NCBI GenBank assembly: GCA_019429185.1
Contig: JAHYJH010000005.1
Location: 2,928-66,927, forward strand
Direction of reading: 5' to 3'
Length of the DNA: 64,000 nucleotides
Source: Vicingaceae bacterium
GTDB lineage: Bacteria > Bacteroidota > Bacteroidia > Flavobacteriales_E > Vicingaceae
Below are positions 15,875 to 39,382 of this stretch, one piece after another (within the stretch, counting starts at the first letter, position 1; each line of letters opens with the position of its first letter). The position numbers were made by a program, and so were the translations under genes. The notes beneath the pieces were generated by a model. That model was given only the letters and a program-made list of their open reading frames with translations, made no database searches and was not told where the DNA came from.

Positions 15875-16984
15875 TTAAAAAAAACGCGCTTGAGATTTTC
15901 TGGTACCAAATGGATTAGGAGAAACATACCTAATACTGATTTCATAACCACCCTGCCCATTAGAGGAAGTTGATAATCCCGAAAGGTTAAAATCATAACT
16001 TACACCAACAGCAAATGAACCCATTTCGAGTAATAAGGATGGAATAAACGCATCACCAAAACGATAATGTACTCCAAAACTCATAGCTGCTCCATTAGAA
16101 AATTGAGAATATTTTGATTTTTCTTTTAAATTATACCTAAAATAAGAACCCAACACCACATCCATCGCTTTTTGCTGATACGCAATAAATCCTGAGGGTT
16201 GTACTGCCATATTTGTTCCCCCAACCCCAAACGAAGTGTTGGTATGTAACACATATCTAAAATCTAAGTTATCTTTATTTTCATTTAAAAACGAAAAATT
16301 AGGACTGGCAACGTGATGAATAGCAGCACCCACATTTACTTTTTTGCCTCCAAACCCTCCGTTATTAATAACCTGATTGGTAGTGTTATCTCCATACGTA
16401 TAAGAAACACCCACTGCAAAATCGGGTTCAAAAAAAGAAGTGTTGTTAAAATTTTCGCCCGAAGCAAAGTTATCATTATGCCCCGAACCATCAAATTGGT
16501 TATCGGAACGAATTTTATCTATGGACAAACTGCTTTGTAAAAAACCAGCTTGCACTCCTGCTGATAAATAGCTCGATTGATCTAATTTAATATGATAAGC
16601 AACTGTTAAATTAACTACTGTTGTTCCTAAACTAAGGTTACCTGCTTTATCGGAATATGCCGTAATTCCCCCACCAAAAAAATTATCCTTTTTAGCATTT
16701 TTATTAAAGTGCATATCAAACGATGCTCCATACGTTCTAAAAGGATTAGAAGTAACGCTGCTCCATTGGTCTCGGTAGTTAATGATGGCTCTCGAATCAC
16801 CGCCAAATTTTCCCGCTTGCGATGGGTCTAACTGTAAAGGAACCATAGTAAATTGTGAAAAGTGCATGTCTTGGGCAGAAGCCCACCCCGACCCTCCCGA
16901 AGGGAGGGAGAGCCAACACACAAGGCTGATGCAGAGTATTCTGATTAGATTTTTCATAGAAATTGATTTTTTAAATAAGTTCAT
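15875..16984 (-). CDS. PorP/SprF-family type IX secretion system membrane protein
   Basis: AQDMHFSQF...PLQLDPSQAG N-terminal signature and beta-barrel-like composition. It lies directly downstream of a type B cargo gene. Likely true start is the Met at 16957 (MKNLIRIL). Confidence 0.85.
   Translation of the reverse strand: MNLFKKSISMKNLIRILCISLVCWLSLPSGGSGWASAQDMHFSQFTMVPLQLDPSQAGKFGGDSRAIINYRDQWSSVTSNPFRTYGASFDMHFNKNAKKDNFFGGGITAYSDKAGNLSLGTTVVNLTVAYHIKLDQSSYLSAGVQAGFLQSSLSIDKIRSDNQFDGSGHNDNFASGENFNNTSFFEPDFAVGVSYTYGDNTTNQVINNGGFGGKKVNVGAAIHHVASPNFSFLNENKDNLDFRYVLHTNTSFGVGGTNMAVQPSGFIAYQQKAMDVVLGSYFRYNLKEKSKYSQFSNGAAMSFGVHYRFGDAFIPSLLLEMGSFAVGVSYDFNLSGLSTSSNGQGGYEISIRYVSPNPFGTRKSQARFF
16881..16930 (-). 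repeat. GC-rich hairpin repeat, copy inside the PorP/SprF signal-peptide coding region
   Basis: gcccaccccgaccctcccgaagggagggagagccaacacacaaggctgat. Stem ccctccc/gggaggg at 16892-16908. Confidence 0.85.
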
Positions 16985-17279: not shown

Positions 17280-17309
17280 ATTTTATACACCTTCGCTCCT
17301 CTACGTAAG

Positions 17310-17336
17310 CCCTCCCTTCGGGAGGGTTGGGTGGGC
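17310..17336 (+). repeat. GC-rich hairpin repeat, inverted copy abutting the stop codon of the type B cargo gene
   Basis: ccctcccttcgggagggttgggtgggc is the reverse complement of 16881-16908, apart from one indel and one mismatch. Confidence 0.85.
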
Positions 17337-17338
17337 TT

Positions 17339-19816
17339 CTACCTTATCAAACTCACATCGCCACTTTCAGTAACTGTTTTTCCGTTTAAAAAAGTAGCTT
17401 CCAACACATACACAAAAACGGCTGTATTTTGATTTGCTCCTTTGTATGTTCCATCCCAGCCTTGATTTACATCATTTATTTCAAATACTTTGTTGCCCCA
17501 ACGGTTATAAATTTTTACCGATAAGGTTGCTATGCCTTTGCCTCGCACAAAAAACACATCATTTTCTCCGTCTCCATTGGGTGAAAACATATTGGGGGTG
17601 TAAACAAAGAAATCGCAAGCTATGTTTGTTTCGTTTATTATGGCTTCTCCGGTAGTTGTACACCCTGCATTATCCTGAACAATCAACGTATATGTTCCTG
17701 CTGCTAAATTGTTTATTATCGAATCGCTTGAACCATTGCTCCAGTTATACACAATAGGTGTATTTAATGTAGTTACCTCTGCTTCAATACTTCCGTTATT
17801 TTCTCCGCAATTATCATCGGCTTTTATTAATGTTAGTTGTGGTGCAGGATTAATGGTTAAATCAGTTATAATCGTATCGCAGTTATTGATAATATCGGTA
17901 AATACTCCTGTGGTGGTGTAAGTATTTGTTCCTACTGTTACACTAAATCCATCACATTCCACTATAACAGTAGTGGTTTTATTGGGTATAGTCAGGGTTA
18001 AATTAAGTGTGATTATACTGTCGCAACCATTTGCTGCTCCTCCAATAAAGGTAACTGTTGGTGTATTTGTATTTGCTGAATAGTTAATGCCGTCTATCCA
18101 AGTAAAGGAATTACCACAAATGGTTTGAATATCTGTAAATGTAGCTGCTGAATTGATAGTTAAATTTAAGGTAACTATACTATCACAACCTTGAACACTT
18201 CCGCCTACTATTGTAAATGTAGGTGTTGTTGTACTTGTGGAGTAAGTTATTCCGTCTATCCAAGTGATAGATGTACATGAAGTAATTACATCTGTGCCTG
18301 TGGTTGCTGAATTGATAGTTAAATTTAAGGTAACTATACTATCACAACCTTGAACACTTCCGCCTACTATAGTAAATGTTGGAGTTGTTGTACTTGTGGA
18401 GTAAGTTATTCCGTCTATCCAAGTGATAGGTGTACATGAAGTAATTACATCTGTGCCTGTGGTTGCTGAATTGATAGTTAAATTTAAGGTAACTATACTA
18501 TCACAACCTTGAACACTTCCGCCTACTATTGTAAATGTTGGAGTTGTTGTACTTGTGGAGTAAGTTATTCCGTCTATCCAAGTAAAAGTATTACAGGCAG
18601 TTTGTATATCTGTACTCGTAGCTGTTGGGTTTATGGTTAGATTTAAAGTTACTATGCTATCACAACCTGATACTGATCCACCAACAAAAGTAAAGGTTGG
18701 AGTGTTAGTACTTGTAGTGTAAACAATATTATCTAGCCAAGTAAAAGTATTACAGGCAGTTTGTATGTCTGTACCTGAAGCAAAAGGATTAATGGTTAAA
18801 TTGAGTGTTACTATACTATCGCAGCCGTTGGCTGCTCCTCCTGTTAAAGTAAAAGTGGGGGTAGTAGTACTGGCTGAATAGGTTATTCCATCTATCCATG
18901 TTAAACTATCGCAAGCGGTTTGAACATCTGTGCTTGTGGCTGTTGGGTTGACAGTTAAATTGGTGGTTATAATGCTATCGCAGCCCAATATATTGGTTAG
19001 CGTATCTATAAATGTTCCTGTTGTGGTATAGGTGTTTGTTCCTACTGTAATGCTTGATCCCTGACAAATAACAGGATTTTGGGTTAAGGTATCTGTGGTG
19101 CAGGTGGTAATTAATACCCAAGGTGAAAAGGTATTTTGTCCGTTAAATACACCTGCTGTACCTATTCCTATGGTAACTCCTGCCGTACCAGGTCCAACCG
19201 GAGTATCCCAAGTAGTACCGTTCCAATGTTGTGCTTGTACTAAATTAGTTGGATTAGTTGTTGTGTTTTCTATTCCTCTATATGAAAATGTTAAATCGGC
19301 TGTAGCACCTGGTGCTTGTATGTCCCAAAAACGGTCTATGGCATAAACCACAGAATCTGTTATTCCAGCCATATTGGTAACTGGACCTACATTCGTGGCT
19401 GCCGGTTTAGGAAAGTTTTGTGGATTGGTAAACCAAGTGGAGATACTTACATTATTATTTCCTGCTGTTTTATTAAAGGTAAACGGAATGTAATCGGTTG
19501 CATTTCCTCCTACGCCAAAAGGAAACAAATAACTTCCTGTTGATGCTGCTGTAAGCCAAGTTATAAAATTATATTGATTTTCGGAGTGGATATGTCCTCC
19601 GGCAGGTAAACGAACAATACCTAATGGATTGGGTTGATCTACAACTATGTGTATGCTGTTGGCTGCGGTGCCTCCGTCTAATACTATATAGGCTCCATCT
19701 AATACTAAAGAGTTGTTTTGACAGCCCCCCTCAATCCCCCCGAAGGGGGGAAACAAACCACACGCAAGGCTAAGAAAAAATATTTTAGTTAGGGTTATTG
19801 ATGTTGTAGCTTTCAT
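17339..19816 (-). CDS. T9SS type B (CHU_C) cargo protein with tandem 53-aa repeats
   Basis: C-terminus FSPNGDGENDVFFVRG...IYNRWGNKVFE...WDGTY. Six core 53-aa repeats (TD.QTAC..FTWIDGITYS.STTTPTFT..GG...GCDSIVTLNLTIN). Confidence 0.85.
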   Translation of the reverse strand: MKATTSITLTKIFFLSLACGLFPPFGGIEGGCQNNSLVLDGAYIVLDGGTAANSIHIVVDQPNPLGIVRLPAGGHIHSENQYNFITWLTAASTGSYLFPFGVGGNATDYIPFTFNKTAGNNNVSISTWFTNPQNFPKPAATNVGPVTNMAGITDSVVYAIDRFWDIQAPGATADLTFSYRGIENTTTNPTNLVQAQHWNGTTWDTPVGPGTAGVTIGIGTAGVFNGQNTFSPWVLITTCTTDTLTQNPVICQGSSITVGTNTYTTTGTFIDTLTNILGCDSIITTNLTVNPTATSTDVQTACDSLTWIDGITYSASTTTPTFTLTGGAANGCDSIVTLNLTINPFASGTDIQTACNTFTWLDNIVYTTSTNTPTFTFVGGSVSGCDSIVTLNLTINPTATSTDIQTACNTFTWIDGITYSTSTTTPTFTIVGGSVQGCDSIVTLNLTINSATTGTDVITSCTPITWIDGITYSTSTTTPTFTIVGGSVQGCDSIVTLNLTINSATTGTDVITSCTSITWIDGITYSTSTTTPTFTIVGGSVQGCDSIVTLNLTINSAATFTDIQTICGNSFTWIDGINYSANTNTPTVTFIGGAANGCDSIITLNLTLTIPNKTTTVIVECDGFSVTVGTNTYTTTGVFTDIINNCDTIITDLTINPAPQLTLIKADDNCGENNGSIEAEVTTLNTPIVYNWSNGSSDSIINNLAAGTYTLIVQDNAGCTTTGEAIINETNIACDFFVYTPNMFSPNGDGENDVFFVRGKGIATLSVKIYNRWGNKVFEINDVNQGWDGTYKGANQNTAVFVYVLEATFLNGKTVTESGDVSLIR
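17990..18950 (-). repeat. 159-bp tandem coding repeat array (6 core units, three of them near-identical)
   Basis: aattgatagt recurs at 18151, 18310 and 18469, an exact 159-bp period. The protein repeat period is 53 aa. Confidence 0.85.
19724..19773 (-). repeat. GC-rich hairpin repeat, copy inside the signal-peptide coding region
   Basis: gcccccctcaatccccccgaaggggggaaacaaaccacacgcaaggctaag. Stem cccccc/gggggg at 19735-19750. Confidence 0.85.
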
Positions 19817-19822
19817 AATTTC

Positions 19823-21220: not shown

Positions 21221-21259
21221 TGGTTTCAGTCTGTTATTTGCTAATTCATACTTAGTTTC

Positions 21260-21299
21260 AAAAAAAAATCCGACCGCTTCGCGGTATTTAAAAAAAAAT
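21260..21299. terminator. Rho-independent terminator with A/T runs on both sides
   Basis: aaaaaaaaatccg-accgc-ttc-gcggt-atttaaaaaaaaa. It lies directly downstream of the FISUMP-type gene. Confidence 0.6.
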
Positions 21300-21326
21300 A
21301 AATCAAATTGTCAAATTGTCAAATAA

Positions 21327-22381
21327 TCAGTCCTTAACGCACCTACAGCTAAAGCCGAACGCCTTACTACCGTTAGTGCGGCCCACCTGAGCACTATTAT
21401 AGCCCAGGGCGCGGTACCACGCACCGGTAGCACTACTCTCGGTAGCACTCCACCAGTAGCCGTTGTTACCAACATTGCTGAACGCGCCGCCCGTACTGCG
21501 GTTGCCACCCGGAAGAGCCGTGAACCCGCTGCTGTTGGTAGCTCCTGTGTTAGGAGTTGTCCAAAGCGTTGTACCGGTTTGTTTAAGGTTGCCACCTGTA
21601 TTTGTTCCACGCCATCCTGTTAAACTGCATCCCGGATCAGTACCAGCTTCTACTGCATTTTCCATAATACACCATTCTGCATCGGAGGGTAGGTGCCAAC
21701 CGGCAGGGCAAACCCCTTGTACTCCACTGGGATTGGAACTACTGCTTGCTGCTCCATTCATAGCTGCTGTCCAGTTATACAAAACGCCATAAGTGGTGTA
21801 GTTTGCTGTTGCTTGGGCGGTGGCTACATTGGTGCCATTGTAACCGTAAACATAATAATAAGGAACGGTTTCGCTGCCTGTTGCAGGTCCTACCACACTC
21901 GGAAGATAAGCGAGGTTTTCTGCCATCCAACACTGAGAACCTATTTGCACGGTATTGTAAACATTGCCATCACGGGCATCGGTAAAAGGGCTGCCACAGG
22001 TTAATGGTGGTGGTGTACCACTTCCCACACAACCAAAACTTACCCATTGTGTGCCTATATATCCCTGATAACAAGAATCGGTAGTGTTGTAAATTAACAA
22101 ACTTTGTGCAGGAGCTACAATAGCATTACGTTCTGTGGTGGAAAGGCGGGGAGTAATAAGCCTTTGTTGTTTGTAGGAGCAGCGTTTACATCTAACAATG
22201 CCGAGGGGTCGGGTGCTGTGCCAGTGGAGTTGATGCCAATATTTTGAGCGGAAGCCCCTCCCAATCCAGCGAGGATGAAAAAACACACCCCTACCCCTCT
22301 CAAGAGGGGAAGCCCACACGCAAGGCTAAGGCAGAAGATTTTAATTAAATTTTTCATAGTTTTATTGTTTTTTGAGTTCAT
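21327..22381 (-). pseudogene. Secreted FISUMP (Fibrobacter succinogenes major paralogous) domain protein, disrupted by a 1-nt frameshift
   Basis: The N-terminal part is in the frame of ORF 22115..22381 (signal peptide, NIGINSTGTAPDPSALLDV...NNKGLLLP). The rest is in the frame of ORF 21327..22319 (RLSTTERNAIVAPAQSLLIYNTTD...DGNVYNTVQIGSQCWMAENL). The switch is at the G4 run 22148-22151. Confidence 0.7.
22284..22331 (-). repeat. GC-rich hairpin repeat, copy inside the signal-peptide coding region
   Basis: cacacccctacccctctcaagaggggaagcccacacgcaaggctaagg. Confidence 0.8.
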
Positions 22382-22499
22382 AGTTTATTGATTTTAGTTG
22401 TTTATAGTTAGTTGGTTTTTCCCCGATAGCCATCGGAGTTGTTTATTGCTTTTTACTTTATATACTTTTTTTTTAATCTTTTATTATTGTCTTTGCTGC

Positions 22500-22743
22500 C
22501 TCCGCTACCCCCTACCCCTAAAGGGGAGAGCCTACGCTACCATGCGTGGGTGGATTCCCTTTAGGGATTAGTTAGGGATTAGGGTGTGCGAGGGCTTTTC
22601 AGCTTTATGTTTTTTAGTGTTGGTTATTAATTTTTCATTCAATGACGGTTTTTATTTAAAATTTAACACTTAAAATTTAACCTTTCCATAACAAAGACGT
22701 AACAATTTTTAAAGGGTTGGGTAAAAAAGTTAAAAAAGTTTAT
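22500..22743 (+). repeat. R-repeat copy 2 plus cassette-boundary repeat A
   Basis: Near-identical by eye to 23542-23756. Ends with ccataacaaagacgtaacaatttttaaagggttgggtaaaaaagttaaaaaagtttat. Confidence 0.85.
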
Positions 22744-22832
22744 GAGGTTGCGTTTTTATGGTGTTTTTTTCAAATTATTTTTTGTATTTTTGTAGTTTAT
22801 TTGTATAAATAAAAAAAGAAATAAAGAGAATC

Positions 22833-23105
22833 ATGGAAACGGTTATTGTTAAAATAGATACTCCTGCTCGTGCAAAGGCACTGGTAAAATATTTCCAAAC
22901 CCTCATTGGTGTTAAGGCTGTTGAATTAAATACATCAAAGAAATCACTTACCGATGCTGATTGGGTTCGCCCTGGCAGACCTGCTACGAAGGAAGAATTG
23001 GAACAGCTTGCCGATGACATGGATGCTGATAAAGGAGCATATACTCCTGAAGAAGTCCTAAATTTTGTAAATGAAGAACTGGCGAAATACCGAAAGAAAA
23101 AATGA
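22833..23105 (+). CDS. Putative antitoxin of a ParE/RelE-type toxin-antitoxin pair
   Basis: 90-aa acidic protein whose stop overlaps the toxin start (ATGA). Assigned by position and size only. Confidence 0.55.
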   Translation: METVIVKIDTPARAKALVKYFQTLIGVKAVELNTSKKSLTDADWVRPGRPATKEELEQLADDMDADKGAYTPEEVLNFVNEELAKYRKKK

Positions 23106-23389
23106 AGGTTATTTTCAGAGAAGCGGCAAAATGTTCTGTTCGTAATATTGTCTTTTACATTGAGGAACAGGGTTATCCCAACAGGGCGGAGAAATATAGT
23201 CGAAAACTTGTAGATTTTGGTTATTCTCTTGTCGATTTCCCCGATAAATACCCGATTTGCCGATTTGATCAATTTGCAAAAAAAGACTTCCGCTGTGCTA
23301 CATTTGACCGCACGTACATTTTTATTTACAAAATTGTAAAAAACCACCTTATTATTTATCACATTATTCATACTAAAAGATTAAATTAA
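23102..23389 (+). CDS. ParE/RelE-family (plasmid stabilisation) type II toxin
   Basis: 95 aa with the typical ParE-like layout (MKVIF...EAAK.....I..YI.......A.K....L......L..FP..YP), coupled to an upstream small ORF. Confidence 0.7.
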   Translation: MKVIFREAAKCSVRNIVFYIEEQGYPNRAEKYSRKLVDFGYSLVDFPDKYPICRFDQFAKKDFRCATFDRTYIFIYKIVKNHLIIYHIIHTKRLN

Positions 23390-23471
23390 TCCCTTTCTTA
23401 TTTTTTTTGACTGCTTACTCTCCTCTCTGTCCGTTTGAAGCCAAGCTTTTTGTGTAATGGCAACTACGTGT

Positions 23472-23527
23472 CCCTAGCAAAGACGACACAATTTTTAAAT
23501 GGTTAGGTAAAAAAATTGCTTATTTAT
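23472..23527 (+). repeat. Cassette-boundary repeat B (diverged copy)
   Basis: ccctagcaaagacgacacaatttttaaatggttaggtaaaaaaattgc aligns with copies A, C and D. Confidence 0.7.
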
Positions 23528-23541
23528 ATATTGTTATTTAC

Positions 23542-23808
23542 CTTCGCTACCCCTAACGCTACCACGCATGGACGGATTCCCTTTAGGGATTAAGGGTGTG
23601 CGAGGGCTTTTCAGCTTTATATTTTTTAGTGTTGGTTATTAATTTTTCATTCAATGACGGTTTTTATTTAAAATTTAACACTTAAAATTTAACCTTTCCA
23701 TAACAAAGATGTAACAATTTTTAAATGGTTGGGTAAAAAAGTTAAAAAAAGTTTATCCCACCCCAACCCTCCCAAAGGGAGGGAGAAAGTTTAAGGGTTA
23801 AGGGTTGA
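23542..23808 (+). repeat. R-repeat copy 3 plus boundary repeat C plus GC-rich hairpin copy
   Basis: 23542-23692 is the R-repeat, 23693-23756 is boundary repeat C, and 23756-23808 is tcccaccccaaccctcccaaagggagggagaaagtttaagggttaagggttg. Confidence 0.85.
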
Positions 23809-23867
23809 AAATATTAGTTTAATCATTTTGTATTTATAGGAATAATTTGTAACTTCGTAAAAAATTA

Positions 23868-24116
23868 TTGTTTATGGAACAATTATTAATAAATATCAGT
23901 TCACGCAACGAAGCTATGTTTTTAATACGTTTATTAAAATCGTTAAACTTTGTAAGCAATGTAAGGAAAATCAACAATAGAGAAAAAATAAAAGTACTTC
24001 CTGTAACTAATTTTACCACGAAAGAGGATTTTTGGGAAACATTTGGAATAGGAAAAACAACAACGATCAGCATTAAAAAAATAAAAGAAAATGCATGGCG
24101 AAAAACACAATTGTAA
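23868..24116 (+). CDS. Putative antitoxin of a VapC-type pair
   Basis: Small ORF that overlaps the start of the PIN-domain reading frame by 22 nt. No recognisable DNA-binding motif. Assigned by context. Confidence 0.45.
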   Translation: MFMEQLLINISSRNEAMFLIRLLKSLNFVSNVRKINNREKIKVLPVTNFTTKEDFWETFGIGKTTTISIKKIKENAWRKTQL

Positions 24117-24481
24117 TACTTGATACCAACATTATAATAGAATTGTATAAGGGAAATCAAAAAATTCGACATATCTGTGAAAAGATTGGCGAATAAAACC
24201 TTTATATCAGTGAAATTTCGGTTGCTGAGTTTTATTTTGGAGCGTTGAATAAAAAAGAAATTCCGCTCATTAAAAAACATTTGGATAAATTCCCATGGAT
24301 ACCTGTAAATGAAGAAATATCCAGCATTTTTACCAAATTTATGATTGAATACAGCCTTAGCCATAAGCCGTATATTGGGGATATGTTGATTGTAGCAACT
24401 GCTATTTATTATGATATTTATGTCCTTACTTTAAATACTAAAGATTTTAGGTTTATAAAAGGAATCAAGATTTATTCTTAA
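24095..24481 (+). pseudogene. PIN-domain (VapC-like) toxin gene with an in-frame TAA at codon 34
   Basis: ATG at 24095 gives MAKNTIVILDTNIIIELYKG (the PIN first-Asp motif), then TAA at 24194-24196. The same frame continues as NLYISEISVAEFYFGA...IGDMLIVATAIYYDIYVLTLNTKDF to 24481. Confidence 0.7.
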
Positions 24482-24506
24482 TTTAACAACTTGTCCCGAT
24501 TGCTTT

Positions 24507-24621
24507 GGATTTCAATAACAAAGATGTAACAATTTTTAAAGGGTTGGGTAAAAAAGTTTAAAAAAGTTTATCCCACCCCAACCCTCCCAAAGGGAGGGAG
24601 AAAGTTTAAGGGTTAAGGGTT
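24507..24621 (+). repeat. Boundary repeat D plus GC-rich hairpin copy
   Basis: 24507-24570 aligns with boundary repeats A and C. 24571-24621 is identical in its core to 23756-23808. Confidence 0.85.
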
Positions 24622-24952
24622 GAAAATATTGTTTTAATTATTTTTCATTTTCCCTTCATCTTTTCTGTCTGTCGTGCGTTTGGGTGGGTAAGCTCTTTTG
24701 CAGGTTTTGGTTTTAGGGTTGCCTGACGAGACCTACAAATGTACTTGACTATGAAGTATTTGAACTCATTAATACCTCTTGCTCAATCGTTTTCCAATAT
24801 TTATTAATCATATTTGCCAAGTCCCATATAAACAAGGTTTCATTCTTTTTCTTACGAAATGGAGCGTAGCGAAATGAAGTAAAAAAAAAGAATGAAAATA
24901 GGGAACAACGCAGTGAAACTAATCAAATAAAGAACAAAAATAATAGAATTAT

Positions 24953-24993
24953 GCTAAAAAAAATCCCTTAAAACTGAATAGTAATAAGGGATT
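24953..24993 (-). terminator. Terminator downstream of tRNA-Ser
   Basis: aaatccctta / taagggattt 10-bp stem, followed on the minus strand by a T-run. Confidence 0.55.
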
Positions 24994-25004
24994 TGATTGT
25001 TTAG

Positions 25005-25092
25005 TGGCGGAGAAAGAGGGATTCGAACCCCCGGTACCTTGCGGTACAACAGTTTTCAAGACTGCCGCATTCGACCGCTCTGCCATTTCTCC
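25005..25092 (-). tRNA. tRNA-Ser (anticodon TGA), CCA encoded
   Basis: Folded by hand. Acceptor GGAGAAA/TTTCTCC, anticodon loop CTTGAAA, long variable arm GTACC..GGTAC, T-arm GGGGG-TTCGAAT-CCCTC, then GCCA. Confidence 0.9.
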
Positions 25093-25297
25093 GCTGCAAA
25101 AGTAACAATTGATTTTAAATATGAAATAGTTTTCTACTTTTTTTGAAAAAATAAATTTAAACTCCTTAGCATCATATTATTAATTATTTTTGCAACCTAG
25201 TATTGATTTTTCAATTATTATAAATCAACCTCTAATTAGAAAAATGGTATAATTTTTATTACTTTTCTAACCTGATTTTTATTAACTTTGAATTTAA

Positions 25298-28084: not shown

Positions 28085-29536
28085 ATTGCTTTCAGCTATT
28101 TGAATCATTATTTTTTCTAACTTAATTTTCATCGCAGCTGCAGAACAATTGTAGTTATTAACTATTATAGCAAATGCAATTGTTCTACCGCTCTTTGTTT
28201 TAGCATATCCAGCATAGCTTCTCACTCGGTTCATGTAGCCACTTTTGGCATATATATTTCCTTGTGCAACTGTGTTTTTACCGATGTTAATTAATGTTCC
28301 TGATTTCCCAGCAACACTAAGCGTGTTGTAAAAATCTGTTTTATTCTTGCTTTTTTTATGCATATAAATCAGCACCTCAACCAATTGCTTTGAGGTTAAT
28401 GTATTAAACCTCGACAAACCACTTCCATCAAAAACACTCATACCATCTACATCAATTCCATTTTTATTCCAAAAAGAAAGCATTGCTTCTGTTCCTGAAA
28501 TTGTTGAACCCACTCCACTTTGCTTTAACCCTATGTGGTTAATTAAGTGTTCGGCATATAAATTTATACTATGTAGATTTGTTAACTTAACAAGCTCAAA
28601 AAGCGTTGGCGATTCTGTATAAGTTATTTCTTTAGTTTTTTTGACGTTATACAAACTATCTTCCGTGTTAGTTGATAAAAGTTGGTTTTTTGTTTTTACA
28701 CCTGTTTCATTTAATTTGCTATTCAACAGAAATGCTGTAAGTGATTCTGGGTTAGGAATAGAGCCTTTTATATTAAATTCATTTTTGTTTTTAGGAATAC
28801 TTCCTGACATAAAACGATTGAATTGGTTTGGACCGCCATAGATGTAGGCTAAATCTTTCCCCACATTATTACTAACTAAATTGTTAGTTAAAAACAAGTT
28901 GGGTATTAAGGGTATAACAGATTGAATTTCAACCTTACCTCCTACTTCGCCAGGTGATTTTAGTGAAAGGGTATAGAAATTTTCATAAATACTAAGACCA
29001 TTTGCTCCAGCCCCATAATAGTTACCAATATCACCCCAAATCCATGTTGAGGGAAGCTGATTATTAAAAATTGTTGCATCGGTAATTATAGCTCCGTTAA
29101 TTGAATCTATGCCTAAGTTTTTAACTGCTGTTGCCCATTTTTGAAAAATAGCTCCATAGTGATTTTGAAAACGATGCGAACCCAATGCAGGATCTCCACC
29201 TCCTTTAATAATTATATTACCATTAAGCACTTTGTTAATGGTATCAATTTCCCCTTGATATAAAATTGATGTTTTAAAACGAGTTTCTTTACCTAAAATT
29301 TCGAAGGCGGTAGCTGTTGTAAGTAGTTTTAGGGTTGAAGCTGGAATCAACGCTCTGTTTTCATCATAGAAAGCCAATGGCAAATTGTTTTCTATGTCAA
29401 AAGCATAAAAACTAATGGAAGCATTTTTTAAATCAACATCAGTAACTAATGCTTTTAGTTCATTTTGCAATGGTGTTTGTTGTCCTACTAAGCCAAATGG
29501 AAGTATGATAAAAATAAATTTTAATGCTTTAATCAT
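28082..29536 (-). CDS. dacB: D-alanyl-D-alanine carboxypeptidase/endopeptidase (PBP4, peptidase S13)
   Basis: ASTLK (SxxK), DGSGLSRFN (SxN) and KSG motifs in the expected order. Confidence 0.85.
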   Translation of the reverse strand: MIKALKFIFIILPFGLVGQQTPLQNELKALVTDVDLKNASISFYAFDIENNLPLAFYDENRALIPASTLKLLTTATAFEILGKETRFKTSILYQGEIDTINKVLNGNIIIKGGGDPALGSHRFQNHYGAIFQKWATAVKNLGIDSINGAIITDATIFNNQLPSTWIWGDIGNYYGAGANGLSIYENFYTLSLKSPGEVGGKVEIQSVIPLIPNLFLTNNLVSNNVGKDLAYIYGGPNQFNRFMSGSIPKNKNEFNIKGSIPNPESLTAFLLNSKLNETGVKTKNQLLSTNTEDSLYNVKKTKEITYTESPTLFELVKLTNLHSINLYAEHLINHIGLKQSGVGSTISGTEAMLSFWNKNGIDVDGMSVFDGSGLSRFNTLTSKQLVEVLIYMHKKSKNKTDFYNTLSVAGKSGTLINIGKNTVAQGNIYAKSGYMNRVRSYAGYAKTKSGRTIAFAIIVNNYNCSAAAMKIKLEKIMIQIAESN

Positions 29537-30021
29537 TAGTTTTTAACTTGTTTTATAGAAAGATTATAAGCGAGTTCAAGTTTTTTATATCGTTCTGCTG
29601 AGATAATACTACAACCACTATTAATTAGATTAAACACTTCTGTTTCTCTGGTTTTGATATAAGGTTTTGAGGTTTTAAAAATAGATAAATGTTGATTTTG
29701 TATATCTGAAGGTTCTTTGACTAAAGTAAAATCGAATTGTTTATTTTCTGAACAAATACCTATTCGTTCTATTTCGTTTTCTTTACAATGAAAAGCGTTT
29801 ATTCCGTTGTTGGTAGTTAGTTCTAAAAAAGTAACTTTTTTGAGTGCTTTTTCGATAACTAAATTGCTAAAAAGAACAATTAGCTCTTTTACTTTTTCGC
29901 TTTTTTGTTGGTTCAACAACTTCCATTCATCATCGTAAATTTGATTAATTATAAGGAAATGCTTAAACTCTTCCTCTAGTTCATGAAGCTCTTCGTTAGT
30001 TAATAAACGATATTTTAACAT
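29536..30021 (-). CDS. Hypothetical cytoplasmic protein
   Basis: Clean 161-aa ORF. Its stop overlaps the dacB start (TAATG). No recognisable domain. Confidence 0.55.
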   Translation of the reverse strand: MLKYRLLTNEELHELEEEFKHFLIINQIYDDEWKLLNQQKSEKVKELIVLFSNLVIEKALKKVTFLELTTNNGINAFHCKENEIERIGICSENKQFDFTLVKEPSDIQNQHLSIFKTSKPYIKTRETEVFNLINSGCSIISAERYKKLELAYNLSIKQVKN

Positions 30022-30040
30022 TTCATCTGTTTATATTTAA

Positions 30041-30163
30041 GCCCCCCACTTTCACACTTGCTCGCTCCAAAGTCCACTGGACTTTGTCCGCCCCCGAAGG
30101 GGGAGGATTTCCACCACACAAAGCCAATAATAATCAGCCTGTGTGTTAAACTTTTTAGCATGG
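30041..30163 (-). repeat. GC-rich hairpin repeat, long 5'-leader copy
   Basis: gccccccact...ccgcccccgaagggggaggatttccaccacacaaagccaataataatcagcctgtgtgttaaactttttagcatgg. It carries an extra inner hairpin, caaagtcc-act-ggactttg. Confidence 0.85.
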
Positions 30164-30244
30164 CTCGTTTCATCTTAAAATAAAAAAGGATGCTTCAAAA
30201 TATAAAGCTATCCCTTTTAATAATAAATACCAAAACAATAAGAT

Positions 30245-30724
30245 TTAATTTAATTCATTGTTTTTCAAATCATTTTGATTTACATTTTCATCTAAAAATG
30301 GGTCATTTGGATATTTATTTAGCATTTCTTTATTTAATTCAACATCATCAATTCCTTCGCCAAATAATTTTTGTTCTTCATCAGTAAAATTCCAATCTGA
30401 ATTGATAATTCCTTTGTTATATCTAATAGCTTTAAAAGCATAAATTCTAGCCAATCGAGAATGATGTAAGGCTCTAAAATAATTATTTTCAGTTAAAAGT
30501 TGCTTTGCAATTTGTTGGTGTTTCACTGCTTTAGACAAACTTTCTGTATAAACTTTGCTTTTTTGTGTTTGTTCATACGCATAGAAAACAACATTATTAG
30601 TTTTTTCTAAGGTATTCGTTATTGTTGCGTTTTCAGTGCTGTTTTTTGCAATTGTTACTTGTCCGAAAGAAAAATTGCTGCTAAAAATTAGTGCTAGAAG
30701 AATAGTAGTTGTAAGTGTTTTCAT
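30245..30724 (-). CDS. Secreted hypothetical protein
   Basis: Best start is MKTLTTTILLALIFSSNFSFGQ at 30724. The longer ORF to 30790 runs through the repeat element in an implausible frame. Confidence 0.55.
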   Translation of the reverse strand: MKTLTTTILLALIFSSNFSFGQVTIAKNSTENATITNTLEKTNNVVFYAYEQTQKSKVYTESLSKAVKHQQIAKQLLTENNYFRALHHSRLARIYAFKAIRYNKGIINSDWNFTDEEQKLFGEGIDDVELNKEMLNKYPNDPFLDENVNQNDLKNNELN

Positions 30725-30740
30725 ATGTAGATATTTATTA

Positions 30741-30826
30741 GCCCCCACTAACTCCCCCGAAGGGGGAGGATTTCCACCACACAAAGCCAATAATCATCAG
30801 CCTGTGTGTTAAATTATTTAGCATGG
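30741..30826 (-). repeat. GC-rich hairpin repeat, 5'-leader copy
   Basis: gcccccactaactcccccgaagggggaggatttccaccacacaaagccaataatcatcagcctgtgtgttaaattatttagcatgg. Confidence 0.85.
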
Positions 30827-30970
30827 ACGTTTCATGTGTTTATATTTATTGAATGTTAATACTATTGTAAATCAAATGTAATTTCAAAAATAACAATTAA
30901 ATTTTGGTTAATTCTTAAATTCATTATTTATTTAAACAAAACAATCATTTCAGTATATTTTGGGTAATCT

Positions 30971-30988
30971 ATACGTATATATACGTAT
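30971..30988. promoter_or_regulatory. Perfect 18-bp palindrome with 7-2-7 layout upstream of the NarL-type regulator gene
   Basis: atacgtatatatacgtat, read as TACGTAT-AT-ATACGTA. Its centre is about 59 bp upstream of the ATG at 31039. Confidence 0.4.
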
Positions 30989-31038
30989 TAAAATTGCAGT
31001 TTAATTCTTTATATTTGCTAGAAATATAATTTGATATT

Positions 31039-31692
31039 ATGGAACATATAAATGTATTTATTGTTGATGACCATGCTCTAATCAGGGAAGGTTATAAATT
31101 GATTTTAAAAAAATATAAAAGTGAAATTAACCTTGTAGGTGAAGCATCTAATGGTATAGAAGCGTTAGAATTTCTTGAAACCAACAACAATGTTGATGTT
31201 GTTTTATTAGACATTACTATGCCAGATATGGATGGCTTTGAACTATCAAAAATAATAATTGAGAAATACCCGTTAATTAAAATTTTAGTTCTAACCATGC
31301 ACAATGACGAACCTTATATTTTTAAAATGATTTCTTTAGGTATTCATGGCTATATTTTGAAAGACACCACACATACCGAACTTTTTATAGCAATAAAAAC
31401 AATTCATGAAGGAAAAAAATTCTATAGTAATGAGGTTTCTAGCATGATGCTTAATAGGTTGTTGCGTAAAAACGAAACTACAAAAAAAGAGGAAATATTA
31501 GAACTCACTTCAAAAGAGGTTGAAATTTTAACTTTAGTTGTTCAAGGGCTAACAAGTACTGAAATAGCTGAAAAATTACAAACAAGTAATAGAACGATTG
31601 AAGCCCACCGAAGAAGTGTTATGAAAAAAATTGATGTTAGGAATACTGCAGAGCTTGTGAGTTATGCCCTAAAAAATAATTTAGTAGCTTAA
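31039..31692 (+). CDS. NarL/FixJ-family response regulator (REC + LuxR-type HTH)
   Basis: IVDDH...LLDITMPDMDG receiver motifs. C-terminal LTSKEVEILTLVVQGLTSTEIAEKLQTSNRTIEAHRRSVMKKI. Confidence 0.9.
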   Translation: MEHINVFIVDDHALIREGYKLILKKYKSEINLVGEASNGIEALEFLETNNNVDVVLLDITMPDMDGFELSKIIIEKYPLIKILVLTMHNDEPYIFKMISLGIHGYILKDTTHTELFIAIKTIHEGKKFYSNEVSSMMLNRLLRKNETTKKEEILELTSKEVEILTLVVQGLTSTEIAEKLQTSNRTIEAHRRSVMKKIDVRNTAELVSYALKNNLVA

Positions 31693-31948
31693 AGTCTGTC
31701 TGTAAAGTCGGAAATCCGATGAAGAACGTCATTGCGAAGCCCAAGCGTTTGGATTGAGTGTTGGAGCTGAAGCAATCTGTCTAATCGAAAGACAGATTGC
31801 TTCGTGCCTCGCAATGACGGTAGCGATGGGCATGGGTGTGTCTTTATCTTCAGTTAGCAAAAGCTGCTGCAAAGTGTTGTTTTTTGCCAACTGTTGACTG
31901 AAGATTGAAAACTTAATTGTAAAAAGTAATACATTATGGACAAACACT
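31693..31948. mobile_element. MITE-like element with nested internal hairpins
   Basis: Ends agtctgtctgtaaagtc (31693-) and attatggacaaacact (-31948) match the termini of the 33480-33620 MITE and the IS remnant at 12414-12429. A solo terminus-like acctgtctgtaaagcc follows at 31956-31971. Confidence 0.45.
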
Positions 31949-31998
31949 AATCAGGACCTGTCTGTAAAGCCAAACTATCGCAATAGCTGGTTCAAACA

Positions 31999-33399
31999 CT
32001 AATTTAACTCTTTCTCTTCATCTAGTTTAAAAGGAAAAACAATATCAAAATTGGTATGTTTTCTTGGAATGCTTTCCATTGTTAGTTTCCCATCAAAAGA
32101 TTCTACCCGAGTTCTGATATTATTTAATCCATGTCCTTTTTGAAGATAAAGTGAATTTACTTCAAAACCAACACGATTATCTTTGAGTTTAAGTGTAACG
32201 GTTTCTTCATTATAAATTAAGTCAATGTTAATTTCTGACAAATTTCCTCCATGTTTAATGGAGTTAGCAACAAACTCTTGAATAATTCTAAAAATAGCTA
32301 TTTCTAACGATTTTGTAAGTGCTGGAAAATGATTTGAATACCTAAATTTAACGTCTAATGTGGCAGTTCTTGTTTTTTTAGTTAAATCATCAATAGCTTT
32401 TATCAACCCATTATCAAATAAAACTAATGGGAGCGTGTTATAGCATATCTTTCTCAAATCCTTAATCGTACCTGAAAGTATAGACGAAATTTTTGCTAAA
32501 TCAGAATCATCTTTTGTTGTTGATTCGGTAAACACATCTAAATGCATTCGAAGGGCAGCTAATTGCTGACCTAATCCATCATGTAAATCCCTAGAAATTC
32601 GCTCTCGTTCTTTTTCTTGAGCTTCTATGGTTGTTTTCAACAGAAGTTGATTGAGTTTGTTTCGTTCTGTGAAATCTTTAATAATCGCCTGAAAACTGAT
32701 AATCTTTCCATAATTATCTCGAATAGCATTAATAGTTATTAAACAATCTTTAGTTGTATTATTTTTACCTAAAACTTGACATTGAAAATCTTTAATAGAG
32801 TCATTACTTTCTAATTTTTGAATGATGTAATTTGTGCTTGACTTATATTTCAAAAGCGAATTAAAACTTCTGTGGTGTAAATTATTTTCTTTATTTGTTT
32901 TTACAAAATCTAGCGTTGCCTTGTTGTAATCAATAATTCTTCCTTTTAAATCAAATGTTAGAATTGGGTCTGATGATTCTGTAAAAATTCGTTGATATTT
33001 CAAATTCAACTTATTGTTTTGTTCTTTTAACAAATAAAGTTGATAGGCATTTTCTATGGTTAATTTCAGATCAAAATCATGCCATGGTTTAGTGATGTAT
33101 CTATAAACCTGACCTTTATTGATAGCATCAATTACTGAATTAATATCGGAATAAGCGGTAACTAAAATTCGAATTGGATTGGGATGAGTTTCTAGTATAG
33201 ACTCAAAGAAATCAACACCACTTGCCTCTGGCATACGTTGGTCTGACAAAATAACTTCAATTTCATGTTGATTTAAAATTTGCTTTGCTTCGGCTGCTGT
33301 TCTGGCTATATAAATATTAAATATTCTTCGAAAAGAAGCCTGAAAAGCTTTTAAATTCAGTATTTGATCATCTATATAGAGTACATTTATTTTTTCCAT
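31999..33399 (-). CDS. Hybrid REC-PAS-histidine kinase (HisKA_3 / NarX-DegS type)
   Basis: N-terminal receiver (ILSDQRMP, LVTAY, ITKPW), a central PAS-like region, H-box RISRDLHDGLGQQL, and a C-terminal ATPase (HGLNNIRTRVESFDGKL). Confidence 0.85.
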   Translation of the reverse strand: MEKINVLYIDDQILNLKAFQASFRRIFNIYIARTAAEAKQILNQHEIEVILSDQRMPEASGVDFFESILETHPNPIRILVTAYSDINSVIDAINKGQVYRYITKPWHDFDLKLTIENAYQLYLLKEQNNKLNLKYQRIFTESSDPILTFDLKGRIIDYNKATLDFVKTNKENNLHHRSFNSLLKYKSSTNYIIQKLESNDSIKDFQCQVLGKNNTTKDCLITINAIRDNYGKIISFQAIIKDFTERNKLNQLLLKTTIEAQEKERERISRDLHDGLGQQLAALRMHLDVFTESTTKDDSDLAKISSILSGTIKDLRKICYNTLPLVLFDNGLIKAIDDLTKKTRTATLDVKFRYSNHFPALTKSLEIAIFRIIQEFVANSIKHGGNLSEINIDLIYNEETVTLKLKDNRVGFEVNSLYLQKGHGLNNIRTRVESFDGKLTMESIPRKHTNFDIVFPFKLDEEKELN

Positions 33400-33427
33400 A
33401 ATAAAGAGGTTTTACAATTTGTTATTA

Positions 33428-33479
33428 GCCCCCTAAATCCCCCGAAGGGGGACTTTGCTATCGCACAGAGCCTATTTAG
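33428..33479 (-). repeat. GC-rich hairpin repeat, 5'-leader copy (interrupted by a MITE at its distal end)
   Basis: gccccctaaatcccccgaagggggactttgctatcgcacagagcctatttag is collinear with 39271-39321. Confidence 0.85.
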
Positions 33480-33620
33480 AGTCTGTCTGTAAAGTCCAAC
33501 TTCTTCGTTATTCTCGTTTTAAAAACCAGTCATTTACAAAAGTAAACTCCTGATTTTCAAAACTTCGAAAGCCTCGAATTTGAACTTTACAGTTCAGCCT
33601 CTCGACTTTATGGACAGACT
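33480..33620. mobile_element. 141-bp MITE with 17-19 bp terminal inverted repeats and an 8-bp flanking duplication
   Basis: Left TIR agtctgtctgtaaagtc, right TIR gactttatggacagact. Flanked by ctatttag (33472-33479) and ctatttag (33621-33628). The paralogous empty site at 39312-39325 has a single ctatttag. Confidence 0.7.
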
Positions 33621-33635
33621 CTATTTAGTTAATGG

Positions 33636-33690
33636 TTATTTGTTTTTTGTTTTTTGTTATTTGTTTTTTGTTATTTGTTTTTTGTTATTA
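33636..33690. repeat. (TTDTTTG) heptamer tract, about 7.8 copies
   Basis: ttatttg ttttttg ttttttg ttatttg ttttttg ttatttg ttttttg. It overlaps the last 11 codons of the 7TMR-DISM kinase gene. Confidence 0.9.
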
Positions 33691-35786
33691 ATAGGTAAAC
33701 TTATTTTAAATTCCGTTCCTATGCCAAGTTCACTAGATATTTCAATAGTTGCATTATGTTTTTTAATTATTCCAAAAACTATCGAAAGCCCTAGTCCTGT
33801 TCCCTCTCCTACATCTTTGGTTGTAAAAAATGGGTCATACATTTTTTGTTTAGTTTGTTCATTCATACCAACGCCATTGTCTTTTATAGTTAGTACAACT
33901 TCATTTTCTTTGGCAACTGTTTTAACTTCAATTTCTCCTTCTGTTAATGGGATTCCTTTTTTCTTGATAGCAAAAATGGCATTATCAACAATGTTTAAAA
34001 CCAGTTGGTTAATTTTTCCAGGGTAACATTCTATTTGAGGTAAATTTTCTAATTTTTTAGTCAATTTGATGTCTCCTATTTTACTTTTTAGTAAAAGTAA
34101 GGTTGAATTAATTCCTTCATTTACATCAGCCAATTTCAAGTCGCTTTCATCTAAGCGTGAAAAATTACGTAAACCACTCACAATTTCAGCAGTACGTTTT
34201 GCTCCATCTTCAATTCCATGAATAATTCCATCCAATTCTTTTAACAGGTAATCGTATTGAAGTTCTTCTTTTAATTGTTCTATTTCCTCCAATTTTTCGG
34301 TTAGATTAGAACTGGTATTTATTTCTGCATATTTATTTAAGATTGCTTTAATATCCTTAATATCTTCGCGTAATGGATAAATATTTGAAGTAATAAAATT
34401 AATAGGATTGTTCACTTCATGAGCTATTCCTGCGGTTAGCTGACCCAATGAAGCCATTTTTTCGGCTTCCACCAATTGCGTTTGGGTTTGTTTAAGATTA
34501 TGCAATGTTTCATTAAGTGACTTAGTACGTTCAACTACTTGTTGTTCTAACATAATGTTTTGTTCTCTAACCAAACGCTCCTTTTCTTCTATTGCTTCTA
34601 ATCGTTCTTTTTTATAGATGTTGATTCTGGCTGCTAATGCAAAGGAAAGGAGTACGGTTTCTGTTGCTGCACCTATTTGCATAAAGTTATTTGTTAAATT
34701 GTTATAAGGAAGAACTCCTATGTCTTTTAATACCCATAAAAATATACCTATCAAAAATACTGACCATGCAATTAAAAAATATTTTGCGGGAGGATAACCT
34801 TTTTTACTTATCAAAAATGCAAATACTAACATTAGGAGAGCAACAACCATTGCATTAATTTCCATTATTATATAACTTACTTTATATACACCAATTATAG
34901 AAAGGGTGATAACTATTAGATAAATAACTATTATTGGTTTAAATATCTTTCTTGCTAAGGGTAAAAACTCTTTTGTTTTCAAAAAATTATTAAAAAAAAT
35001 TATCCCTGAAATTCCAACTAAAGAAGGTAATAAAAACATTGAATGTATTGCTAACCATGAAGAATTTGGCCAAAAATACTGAAAGGTAAATCCTTTAGGA
35101 CAAAGCTGAGTGAGCATCAAAATAAATATATATATCACATAATAAATATAACTCGTATCCTTTGTTGAAACAAATACAAAGAAATTATAAAAAATCATCA
35201 CCATCATGACTCCAAAAAAAATTGAAGAATAAAATGTAAAATCAATTGAACGTTCAGATATGGATAATAAACTACCAACAAAAATTGGTACTTGAATTTG
35301 TTCCGTACTTTTAATTTTTAAGAAATAAGTTTTTGTTTCTTTTGGTTCTATATTTAAGTCAAATATATAGTTGGTAAACAAATATTTTCTATTATAAAAA
35401 GGCACCGATTCCCCTATCTTAACAACACTATTAATTTTATAATCGTAAAACTCTACTTCATCCATTATTGGATGTGCAAGTTCTAACAATAGTTTTTTTT
35501 CGCTCTCGTTTTTAATTATTATTTTCAGCCAAAAAGCAGAATTAGTTATACCAAAATTTGGAACATCTTTTTGTGATAACTTAAAATCATTAGATTGAAT
35601 GACTTCTTCAATCTCTAAATTATTAGTTTTATCTTCTAGATAATGAATTTTTTTTCCAATTAATTTATTATAACTTAACCCATCTACCTCAAGTATTACA
35701 TTATTTGAAGAATAAATTATTGTTGGGTAAATTCCTAAAAAAATTACCATCAACAAATAACAATATTTAGTGTGCTTGAATAACAT
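33657..35786 (-). CDS. 7TMR-DISM sensor histidine kinase
   Basis: Signal peptide, an extracellular DISMED2-like domain, seven TM helices, a coiled coil, H-box AGIAHEVNNPINF, and the ATPase G-box GTGLGLSIV. Confidence 0.85.
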   Translation of the reverse strand: MLFKHTKYCYLLMVIFLGIYPTIIYSSNNVILEVDGLSYNKLIGKKIHYLEDKTNNLEIEEVIQSNDFKLSQKDVPNFGITNSAFWLKIIIKNESEKKLLLELAHPIMDEVEFYDYKINSVVKIGESVPFYNRKYLFTNYIFDLNIEPKETKTYFLKIKSTEQIQVPIFVGSLLSISERSIDFTFYSSIFFGVMMVMIFYNFFVFVSTKDTSYIYYVIYIFILMLTQLCPKGFTFQYFWPNSSWLAIHSMFLLPSLVGISGIIFFNNFLKTKEFLPLARKIFKPIIVIYLIVITLSIIGVYKVSYIIMEINAMVVALLMLVFAFLISKKGYPPAKYFLIAWSVFLIGIFLWVLKDIGVLPYNNLTNNFMQIGAATETVLLSFALAARINIYKKERLEAIEEKERLVREQNIMLEQQVVERTKSLNETLHNLKQTQTQLVEAEKMASLGQLTAGIAHEVNNPINFITSNIYPLREDIKDIKAILNKYAEINTSSNLTEKLEEIEQLKEELQYDYLLKELDGIIHGIEDGAKRTAEIVSGLRNFSRLDESDLKLADVNEGINSTLLLLKSKIGDIKLTKKLENLPQIECYPGKINQLVLNIVDNAIFAIKKKGIPLTEGEIEVKTVAKENEVVLTIKDNGVGMNEQTKQKMYDPFFTTKDVGEGTGLGLSIVFGIIKKHNATIEISSELGIGTEFKISLPINNKKQITKNK

Positions 35787-39270: not shown

Positions 39271-39321
39271 GCCCCCTAATCCCCCGAAGGGGGGCTTTGC
39301 CATCACTCAAAGCCTATTTAG
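39271..39321 (-). repeat. GC-rich hairpin repeat, 5'-leader copy (uninterrupted reference copy)
   Basis: gccccctaatcccccgaaggggggctttgccatcactcaaagcctatttag. Confidence 0.85.
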
Positions 39322-39327
39322 TTAAGG

Positions 39328-39382
39328 TTATTGTTATTTGTTATTTGTTTTTTTGTTTTTTGTTTTTTGTTTTTTGTTTTTT
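39328..39382. repeat. (TTDTTTG) heptamer tract
   Basis: ttattg ttatttg ttatttg tttttttg ttttttg ttttttg ttttttg. It ends at the stop codon of 39381..40196. Confidence 0.9.

Follow-up and report, generated by a model that had tools for sequence, protein, structure and literature searches.

The stretch analysed here, referred to below as the window, comprises 64 kb of a 67-kb Joint Genome Institute (JGI) metagenome contig from a Vicingaceae bacterium (JAHYJH010000005.1), with metagenome-assembled genomes (MAGs) of Vicingaceae and Flavobacteriales as its named nearest relatives. Its G+C content is 32.7%, and the minus strand carries about 83% of its genes. The subject of this analysis is a short G/C-rich hairpin repeat, termed here the triplex-type motif (TM), copies of which stand directly before four start codons of the window. 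The sequence CCCCCTTCGGGGG has five exact matches (19737, 30091, 30754, 33439 and 39281), all five on the minus strand, while shuffled sequences are expected to contain none. An earlier note on this DNA had described the four minus-strand copies before start codons, and its positions were recovered: the final GGGGGC runs end at 30041, 30741, 33428 and 39271, leaving 19, 16, 28 and 13 nucleotides (nt) to the downstream ATGs at 30021, 30724, 33399 and 39257, respectively. The two short open reading frames (ORFs) reported there are also present in the ORF list, at 30738..30824 (28 aa, MLNNLTHRLMIIGFVWWKSSPFGGVSGG) and 30015..30173 (52 aa), and the stop codon of the 52-aa ORF is seen to overlap the main start in ATGAAATGTTAA (overlap ATGTTAA). 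The two copies at 30 kb are 96% identical over 73 nt. Since about 83% of the genes are on the minus strand, the sharing of one strand by the four copies is not significant by itself, and the orientation rule given below rests on a wider sample. The copies of the motif and the composite units that carry them are collected in Table 1.

The motif was scanned for in one genome per species with the pattern CCCCCTTCGGGGN{4,8}GGGGGCWWWW, yielding at least 119 stretches, and nearly all of the 80 record titles among the matches listed belong to Bacteroidota (Flavobacteriales, Chitinophagales, Cytophagales, Bacteroidales and other orders). A metagenome scan with the left-arm pattern gave 28 loci, the contig's own sample not being among them. 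Every G/C-rich hairpin with a pyrimidine 5′ arm was collected from the scan loci and the window (0.95 Mb, n = 306), and stems of 5 nt (153), 6 nt (55), 7 nt (41) and 8 nt (16) were tallied. A perfect mirror of the purine arm, located 1-7 nt after the hairpin and on exactly one strand, was found in 264 of the 306, compared with 5.5 on average and at most 13 for shuffled tails. The first loops measure 3-5 nt, and the second loops are mainly TTA (the commonest), TTT, TT and TTG. The third-arm base is G opposite G.C, while opposite A.T it is A (101 times) or T (33 times). Examples of mirror arms are GGGGGAG-TTG-GAGGGGG and GGAGAAGGGA-TTT-AGGGATGAGG in the sample, and GAGGGG-TA-GGGGTG and GGGGGAG-TTA-GTGGGGG in the window, all copies of which have a pyrimidine arm that is Watson-Crick complementary to the next purine arm.

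By its sequence, this mirror arm is the design of a class II purine-motif intrastrand triplex (third base G on G.C, A on A.T and T on A.T). The class covers the E. coli BoxC and PIT elements (Hoyne and Maher 2000, 2002) and TM_ECO (Holder et al. 2015, PMC4666352), an example of the latter being CCCTCGCCCC-TTT-GGGGAGAGGG-TTA-GGGTGAGGGG (PMC4666352). Judged by its arms, the repeat is a short-armed Bacteroidota version that is new within this known class. The finder used for TM_ECO requires arms of at least 6 nt, with most copies here having 5 nt, and the TM_ECO paper leaves Bacteroidetes unmentioned (PMC4666352). Searches of Rfam at gathering and permissive thresholds returned no relevant family for the element, and a literature search with the literal motif sequence returned nothing relevant.

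The same arms bear on the suggestion of the earlier note that the C-run can pair with either of two G-runs. Watson-Crick pairing of a mirror arm with the pyrimidine arm is impossible, and thus this model fails: among 130 hairpins with asymmetric arms, which provide the covariation check of the alternative pairings, the third arm is a mirror in 104 and a direct repeat in 14, and 12 of these 14 also fit the mirror rule. An attenuator in which the C-run forms two mutually exclusive hairpins, with the first or the second G-run, under the control of upstream ORF (uORF) translation is therefore hardly credible. Either G-run of the copies with G5 arms could in principle pair with the C-run, and an upstream ORF does run through the hairpin in two copies, but the mirror arm would give C.A mismatches in the alternative helix. 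Moreover, two of the four copies have stop codons in place of a uORF, the window copies lack a U-run after the hairpin, and conservation of the sites is missing.

Related-strain contigs were aligned to window positions 29400-33600, and the orthologous loci L149-L154, with 87-89% protein identity and 88-94% DNA identity over genes to the window, were aligned for the junctions. The closest run, X1, contains both 30-kb copies. The runs X2, X3 and X10 skip from 30021 to 30249, with 80 nt where the window has 227, and X3 and X10 also skip from 30724 to 30869, with 36 nt where the window has 144, while X2 carries a different insert of 173 nt between 30739 and 30863. Overall, three of the four copies are missing from relatives that are about 90% identical in DNA. 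In the alignment of L149-L154, the relatives read ..TTTTAAGTTAAGATG joined directly to TTAAAATATCG at site A, while the window reads ..TTTTAAGATG, the insert AAACGAGCC...CAGATGAAATG and again TTAAAATATCG. At site B, ..CTAACTAAATGAAA is joined directly to ACACTTAC in the relatives, while in the window ..AACACATGAAA is followed by the insert CGTCC...CTACATATGAAA and then ACACTTAC. Both units, A of 152 nt and B of 111 nt, start with ATG AAA CG and are inserted exactly at the host start codon; no terminal inverted repeats were found in the solo units. At the 33.4-kb site the relatives have a (TAAATCG)n tract without the motif, and homology resumes 18 nt before the ATG. In addition, no motifs were found in the orthologous 7-10 kb (approximately) of L149, L150 and L152, against three in the window.

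Table 1. Copies of the triplex-type motif (TM) and composite units in the window.
Feature	Position	Strand	Description
TM, copy B	30741..30768	-	CTCCCCC-TTC-GGGGGAG-TTA-GTGGGGG-C (pyrimidine arm, purine arm, mirror third arm); end 16 nt before ATG 30724
Composite unit B, 111 nt	30725..30835	-	Missing in relatives; ATGAAA at both junctions (empty versus filled alignment); order ATGAAACG, signal-peptide-like stretch, left-arm box GGCTTTGTGTGGTGG, TM, tail TAATAAATATCTACAT
28-aa uORF within unit B	30738..30824	-	Out of frame with the unit's first ATG (30835) through a 1-nt deletion
Composite unit A, 152 nt	30022..30173	-	Missing in relatives; exactly at the ATG of the DUF6495 gene; ATG at both junctions; holds the 52-aa uORF 30015..30173 minus its final 7 nt, the uORF end being the ATGTTAA overlap with the main start
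TM of unit A	30041..30103	-	Hairpin 30091-30103; third arm GGGGGGC 30041-30047; 43-nt second repeat (30048-30090) between them
TM and left-arm hairpin	33428..33479	-	GGCTCTGTGCGATAGCAAAGT + CCCCC-TTCG-GGGGG-ATTTA-GGGGGC; end 28 nt before ATG 33399
TM and left-arm hairpin	39271..39321	-	End 13 nt before ATG 39257
TM in PorP/SprF signal peptide, in frame	16882..16908	-	..LSLPSGGSGWASAQD; CCCTCCC-TTC-GGGAGGG-TCG-GGGTGGG
TM in signal peptide of 825-aa protein, in frame	19725..19751	-	..FFLSLACGLFPPFGGIEGGC..
TM in signal peptide of ORF 22115..22381 (frameshifted gene), in frame	22286..22309	-	..LSLACGLPLLRGVGV..; CCCCTC-TTGA-GAGGGG-TA-GGGGTG
TM, opposite orientation	17310..17336	+	Third-arm end and stop codon of the 825-aa gene (17339-17341, minus strand) 2 nt apart
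Further TM copy	23757..23783	-	
Further TM copy	24572-24598	-	
Further TM copy	22509-22526	-	
Further TM copy	17166-17183	-	
Further TM copy	17211-17229	+	
Further TM copy	22556-22577	+	
Further TM copy	23578-23596	+	
Example single-strand sequence of a window TM copy			CTCCCCCTTCGGGGGAGTTAGTGGGGGC

The earlier note had also claimed that the hydrophobic part of the uORFs is homologous at the DNA level to real signal peptides, and this was borne out. A box (A/G)GC(C/T)TTG(T/C)GTG(T/G)(T/G)GG followed by the hairpin and the G-run lies in frame at the N-termini encoded by ORFs 15875..16984, 17339..19816 and 22115..22381, with the translations ..LCISLVCWLSLPSGGSGWASAQD in the PorP/SprF protein, ..FFLSLACGLFPPFGGIEGGC in the 825-aa protein and ..LSLACGLPLLRGVGV..GGASAQN in ORF 22115..22381, and the uORF peptides (..GFVWWKSSPFGG..) contain the same box in the same frame as these real signal peptides. 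The C-terminus of the 825-aa protein, unscanned, is presumably a type IX secretion system (T9SS) sorting domain of the CHU_C type. The relatives of the PorP/SprF protein have a common mature N-terminus, AQD(I/M)HFSQFTM, preceded by signal peptides with zero, one or two motifs: motif-type signal peptides occur in P0041-P0045 (two motifs in P0042) and, in decayed form, in P0051, and others have ordinary signal peptides, including P0046 at 89% identity. L156 lacks a motif between the stop codon of the upstream gene and the mature PorP codons, whereas L158 has three there and the window has at least four, and L128 has two motifs in the signal peptide of a relative of ORF 22115..22381. On this comparison, signal-peptide DNA is a tolerated landing zone in which motif-bearing 5′ ends vary even among close relatives, and the 30-kb units look like such motif-bearing 5′ ends put before genes that already had their own start. 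P0046 was also considered as an empty PorP locus and was rejected, since its downstream neighbours are unlike those of the window, making it a related locus and not a positional orthologue. Many of the ordinary PorP/SprF signal peptides (among P0046-P0099) read ..LTLNFELQTLNC.. or ..IFNFQLLTFNC.., and their DNA is an A/T-rich near-palindrome (TTAAACTTTGAGCTTCAAACCTTAAAG; L156:218-310); another hairpin-type repeat may be built into the signal peptides of this lineage.

Several other observations were made along the same stretch. The 43-nt hairpin-containing repeat inside unit A (30048-30090, CGGACAAAGTCCAGTGGACTTTGGAGCGAGCAAGTGTGAAAGT) recurs at 95% identity in another metagenome contig (L132:11893-11948). 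The heptamer tracts in the same intergenic gaps differ in their unit, being (AACAAAA/AACAAAT)n in the window (33606-33700 and 39322-39380) versus (TAAATCG/TCAATAG)n in L149-L153 (2080-2160), and heptamer copy number differs in L145. An element resembling a MITE (a miniature transposable element with inverted repeats), at 33480-33620, reaches a very high summed depth in the relatives' metagenomes, up to about 51,000 in X2. Termini like those of this MITE-like element (GTCTGTCTGTAAAG) are also found at 31694-31708 and 31958-31972, and contigs of X2 skip from 31709 to 31846/31847, which marks a further filled/empty site. Synteny with the relatives stops just beyond the tRNA at 25008-25092; L149 matches 24928-25180 at 96% and then runs on into a DUF4403 gene, and L150 into a YgjP-like gene. 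The motif-dense region of about 16000-25000, with the 825-aa gene, the PorP/SprF gene and ORF 22115..22381, looks like a tRNA-side island.

In the wider sample, scored against the longest ATG ORFs, two main placements of the motif were observed, namely sense copies whose third arm precedes a start codon by 4-30 nt and antisense copies whose third arm is separated from a stop codon by 0-5 nt. In the pooled data, 36 of 65 G-run ends point to a start no more than 30 nt away, compared with 4 of 72 for the other end (Fisher p = 5.6e-11). The 136 units outside the seed pattern, which are free of the WWWW selection bias, behave in the same way: among 30 cases on the third-arm side, 13 look toward a start no more than 30 nt away and 14 toward a stop no more than 5 nt away, while none of the 26 cases on the pyrimidine side has a start within 30 nt. 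The fixed orientation next to start codons proposed in the earlier note thus stands as a family-level rule, but it is only half of a wider rule of ORF boundaries. The stop-codon half is also seen in the window, where the plus-strand copy at 17310-17336 lies by the stop of the 825-aa gene, and the same arrangement is found in the relative L158. In-frame copies were located within the first 10-30 codons of housekeeping proteins, among them TrpA, HemC, LeuA, Mpl and SelD. Two further roles were considered and set aside. A Shine-Dalgarno (SD)-like role of the G-run is disfavoured by equal numbers of copies lying antisense at stop codons and by Bacteroidota, in which SD pairing is largely unused, and a terminator role is disfavoured by the mere 13-28 nt left before the ATG and the lack of a U-run after the window copies.

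Taken together, these results suggest that the four 'leaders' are probably solo copies of a Bacteroidota-wide triplex-type DNA repeat that is unstable or mobile and with which the 5′ ends of genes hitch-hike, the uORFs being by-products; a dedicated regulatory RNA is probably not what they represent. On this reading, the repeat would be gained and lost among close relatives and would settle at ORF boundaries with its third-arm end toward the ORF. A unit of 111 or 152 nt with its own ATG and signal-peptide-like codons would have been inserted exactly at the host start codon, such that the native initiation site became the start of a short ORF and a second ATG was left for the gene. The hydrophobic codons would be the repeat's own left-arm box, as in the real signal peptides of the window. 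At site B, the sole promoter boxes of Bacteroidota type (TAnnTTTG, the Bacteroidota promoter consensus) lie upstream of the insert and are conserved in the relatives, so the element would be co-transcribed with the downstream gene. Translation of the gene might still proceed by way of the A/T-rich tail, or ribosomes might terminate and reinitiate at the ATGTTAA overlap, and the uORFs would be by-products rather than regulators. Among the three options offered by the earlier note, the two 30-kb copies agree well with the mobile remnant of a gene 5′ end, which comes closest, whereas a conserved leader or attenuator is not supported, with three of the four sites empty in relatives, no Rfam match and no unusual fold; RNA fold prediction gave only short hairpins with an open start region and weak z-scores of -0.9 to -2.5.

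The motif might alternatively act as a selected cis-acting RNA leader, in which the hairpin, alone or together with a uORF, makes the mRNA more stable at its 5′ end or adjusts translation of the downstream gene, and the repeat has spread because it is useful. We regard this as quite unlikely, even though it would account for the sense orientation and tight start-codon spacing across the phylum, the UUCG tetraloop on the sense strand, the predicted folds with an unpaired start codon and the uORF stop that overlaps the main start. Three of the four sites are empty in relatives of about 90% identity, however, and antisense copies directly after stop codons are about equally many. Covariation keeps the mirror arm, for which an RNA hairpin has no use, and in RNA purine-motif triplexes reportedly do not form (PMC4666352). 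Likewise, there is no Rfam match, and PIT elements are without promoter or terminator activity in E. coli (PMC4666352).

Several points weigh against the repeat as a mobile DNA element with by-product uORFs, and some of them favour an RNA leader. In four Flavobacterium loci (L081, L110, L116 and L118) a copy lies 4-5 nt before one gene with the N-terminus MKTAYIVKAYRTAVGK, which we take to be thiolase-like, and the 39-kb copy is kept in L145 (92% identical), with a shorter heptamer tract there; both could reflect selection for a leader function. Neither uORF is interrupted anywhere across the insert, a somewhat improbable outcome by chance, and they could be translated for a reason. The junctions repeat ATG at site A and ATGAAA at site B, and with only two junction pairs resolved, these repeats may stem from target-site duplication, from microhomology or from the unit itself. 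The placement counts come from loci picked for holding one motif, with ORFs delimited crudely. Triplex folding of arms of 5-7 nt would have to be assumed from the arm design, and the TM_ECO triplex was formed by single-stranded DNA oligonucleotides in vitro, with none detected in vivo (PMC4666352).

Two kinds of gene were compared as possible movers of the repeat. Seven DUF559 (PF04480) segments were found in the fetched loci (L031, L060, L066, L082, L111, L114 and L115, e.g., L111:6156-6616), six of which were scanned and gave E values of 1e-33 to 1e-36, and all seven have motifs on both sides. They lie in frame in MetH (four), ValRS, LeuRS and a DegT-like aminotransferase, and resemble mobile elements inserted in frame, without splicing, in housekeeping genes. 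In E. coli, the 3′ end of the DUF559 gene ycjD overlaps a decayed motif and is duplicated about 60 nt downstream (L155, NC_000913.3:1351040-1351840), and TM_ECO no. 9 lies about 170 nt downstream of ycjD, after the duplicated ycjD 3′ end. No DUF559 gene was found in the window. By this association, which is not a mechanism, the DUF559 (Vsr-fold) nuclease is the best candidate mobiliser. A more speculative proposal, which we hold to be unlikely, is that a homing element directed at ORF boundaries has these motifs as its ends and the DUF559 nuclease gene in its autonomous form, the composite 5′ forms being portable 'start codon plus signal peptide' cassettes. If this is true, such cassettes would swap secretion signals, as in the PorP/SprF gene, the 825-aa gene and ORF 22115..22381, a cassette landing before a gene for a non-secreted protein would leave a uORF, and the motifs would be a mobile supply of new N-termini in Bacteroidota.

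The second kind is the RAYT (Y1/HUH) transposase, which would move the motif as a REP/REPIN-type element. The motif is indeed a short G/C-rich palindromic repeat with in-frame intragenic copies and frequent inverted dimers (60 tail-outward pairs within 150 nt), and Bacteroidetes RAYT subclasses with atypical flanking structures are known (PMC6006769). This origin is nevertheless very improbable. The GTAG/GTGG tag is missing in the window copies, whose hairpin feet are AAAGT, AAAGC or ATCCT, with ACGTCA upstream at some other loci but not generally, and the motif is not among the REP sequences in the supplement of PMC6006769. A single RAYT-like ORF was found in 0.92 Mb (L060:1-553), its 5′ flank carrying an ordinary terminator and not the motif, and its 3′ flank lying beyond the end of the locus, against seven DUF559 genes that are all bracketed by motifs. 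A RAYT link is not supported by this sample.

It might also be that no transposition is involved and that the motif is a fragile site, at which stalled replication or breaks are repaired from other copies while neighbouring codons are copied through microhomology such as ATGAAA. Junctions within ATG/ATGAAA repeats, units that are variable in length and composite in content, and signal peptides swapped upstream of a conserved mature N-terminus would all agree with this, as would the TM_ECO loci, which are more rearranged between E. coli strains with no transposase known (PMC4666352). Such repair would need a prior copy at the recipient site, however, and the empty sites show none, nor would it alone explain the phylum-wide polarity at ORF boundaries and the bracketing of DUF559 genes; on balance we consider it unlikely, though still a serious alternative.

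BoxC, PIT and TM repeats have been known since the 1990s, yet to our knowledge they still lack both an assigned function and a mobilising enzyme. The base-exact filled and empty sites described here suggest that a short-armed Bacteroidota version lands at start codons, with the same motif built into working signal peptides, and the wider sample reveals a strong polarity with respect to start and stop codons that is unreported for E. coli. For annotation, these motifs may be the source of spurious small ORFs, of N-terminal extensions and of signal-peptide calls in Bacteroidota genomes, and for protein evolution the motifs might be a route for fast change of the N-terminus. The mirror-arm rule persists inside coding sequence, so the old question of a role for DNA structure becomes testable.

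The repeat shares features with four known systems. With leader-peptide attenuators and uORF-controlled leaders it has in common a short ORF running through a stable hairpin upstream of a gene, with its stop near or overlapping the main start, but it lacks their conserved alternative pairing, terminator U-run, conservation at orthologous sites and pathway-linked codon bias. Like the Rickettsia palindromic elements (RPE), which are selfish palindromic repeats tolerated in frame in coding genes, it adds peptide segments to proteins; RPEs, of 100-150 bp, are unrelated in sequence, size and lineage, and they are not known to be concentrated at ORF ends or signal peptides (see also PMC3733652). Like REP/REPIN elements, it consists of short G/C-rich palindromes that form inverted dimers, lie directly after stop codons and are occasionally inserted in frame, whereas the window copies have no GTAG/CGTC tag, no RAYT association was seen, and the mirror third arm is absent from REPs.

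The BoxC/PIT/TM_ECO class is the system to which the repeat was assigned above. TM_ECO differs in having arms of 9 nt, compared with 5-7 nt and mainly C5/G5 here, and its consensus CCCTCNCCC N3-6 GGGNGAGGG N3 GGGNGAGGG does not fit the present copies. TM_ECO elements are described as always intergenic with no preferred distance to ORFs (PMC4666352), unlike the motifs here, which lie close to start and stop codons and in many cases are read in frame. TM_ECO and PIT elements were reported to have no promoter or terminator activity, to occur commonly in inverted pairs and to lie at loci that are more rearranged between strains (PMC4666352). The Bacteroidota repeat resembles the class in its many dispersed copies, its frequent inverted pairs, its loci that differ between close strains and the lack of a known attached transposase. 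It shares, above all, the order of a pyrimidine arm, a loop of 3-6 nt, a purine arm, a loop of about 3 nt (often TTA, which TM_ECO type A also has) and a mirror third arm of G, A or T.

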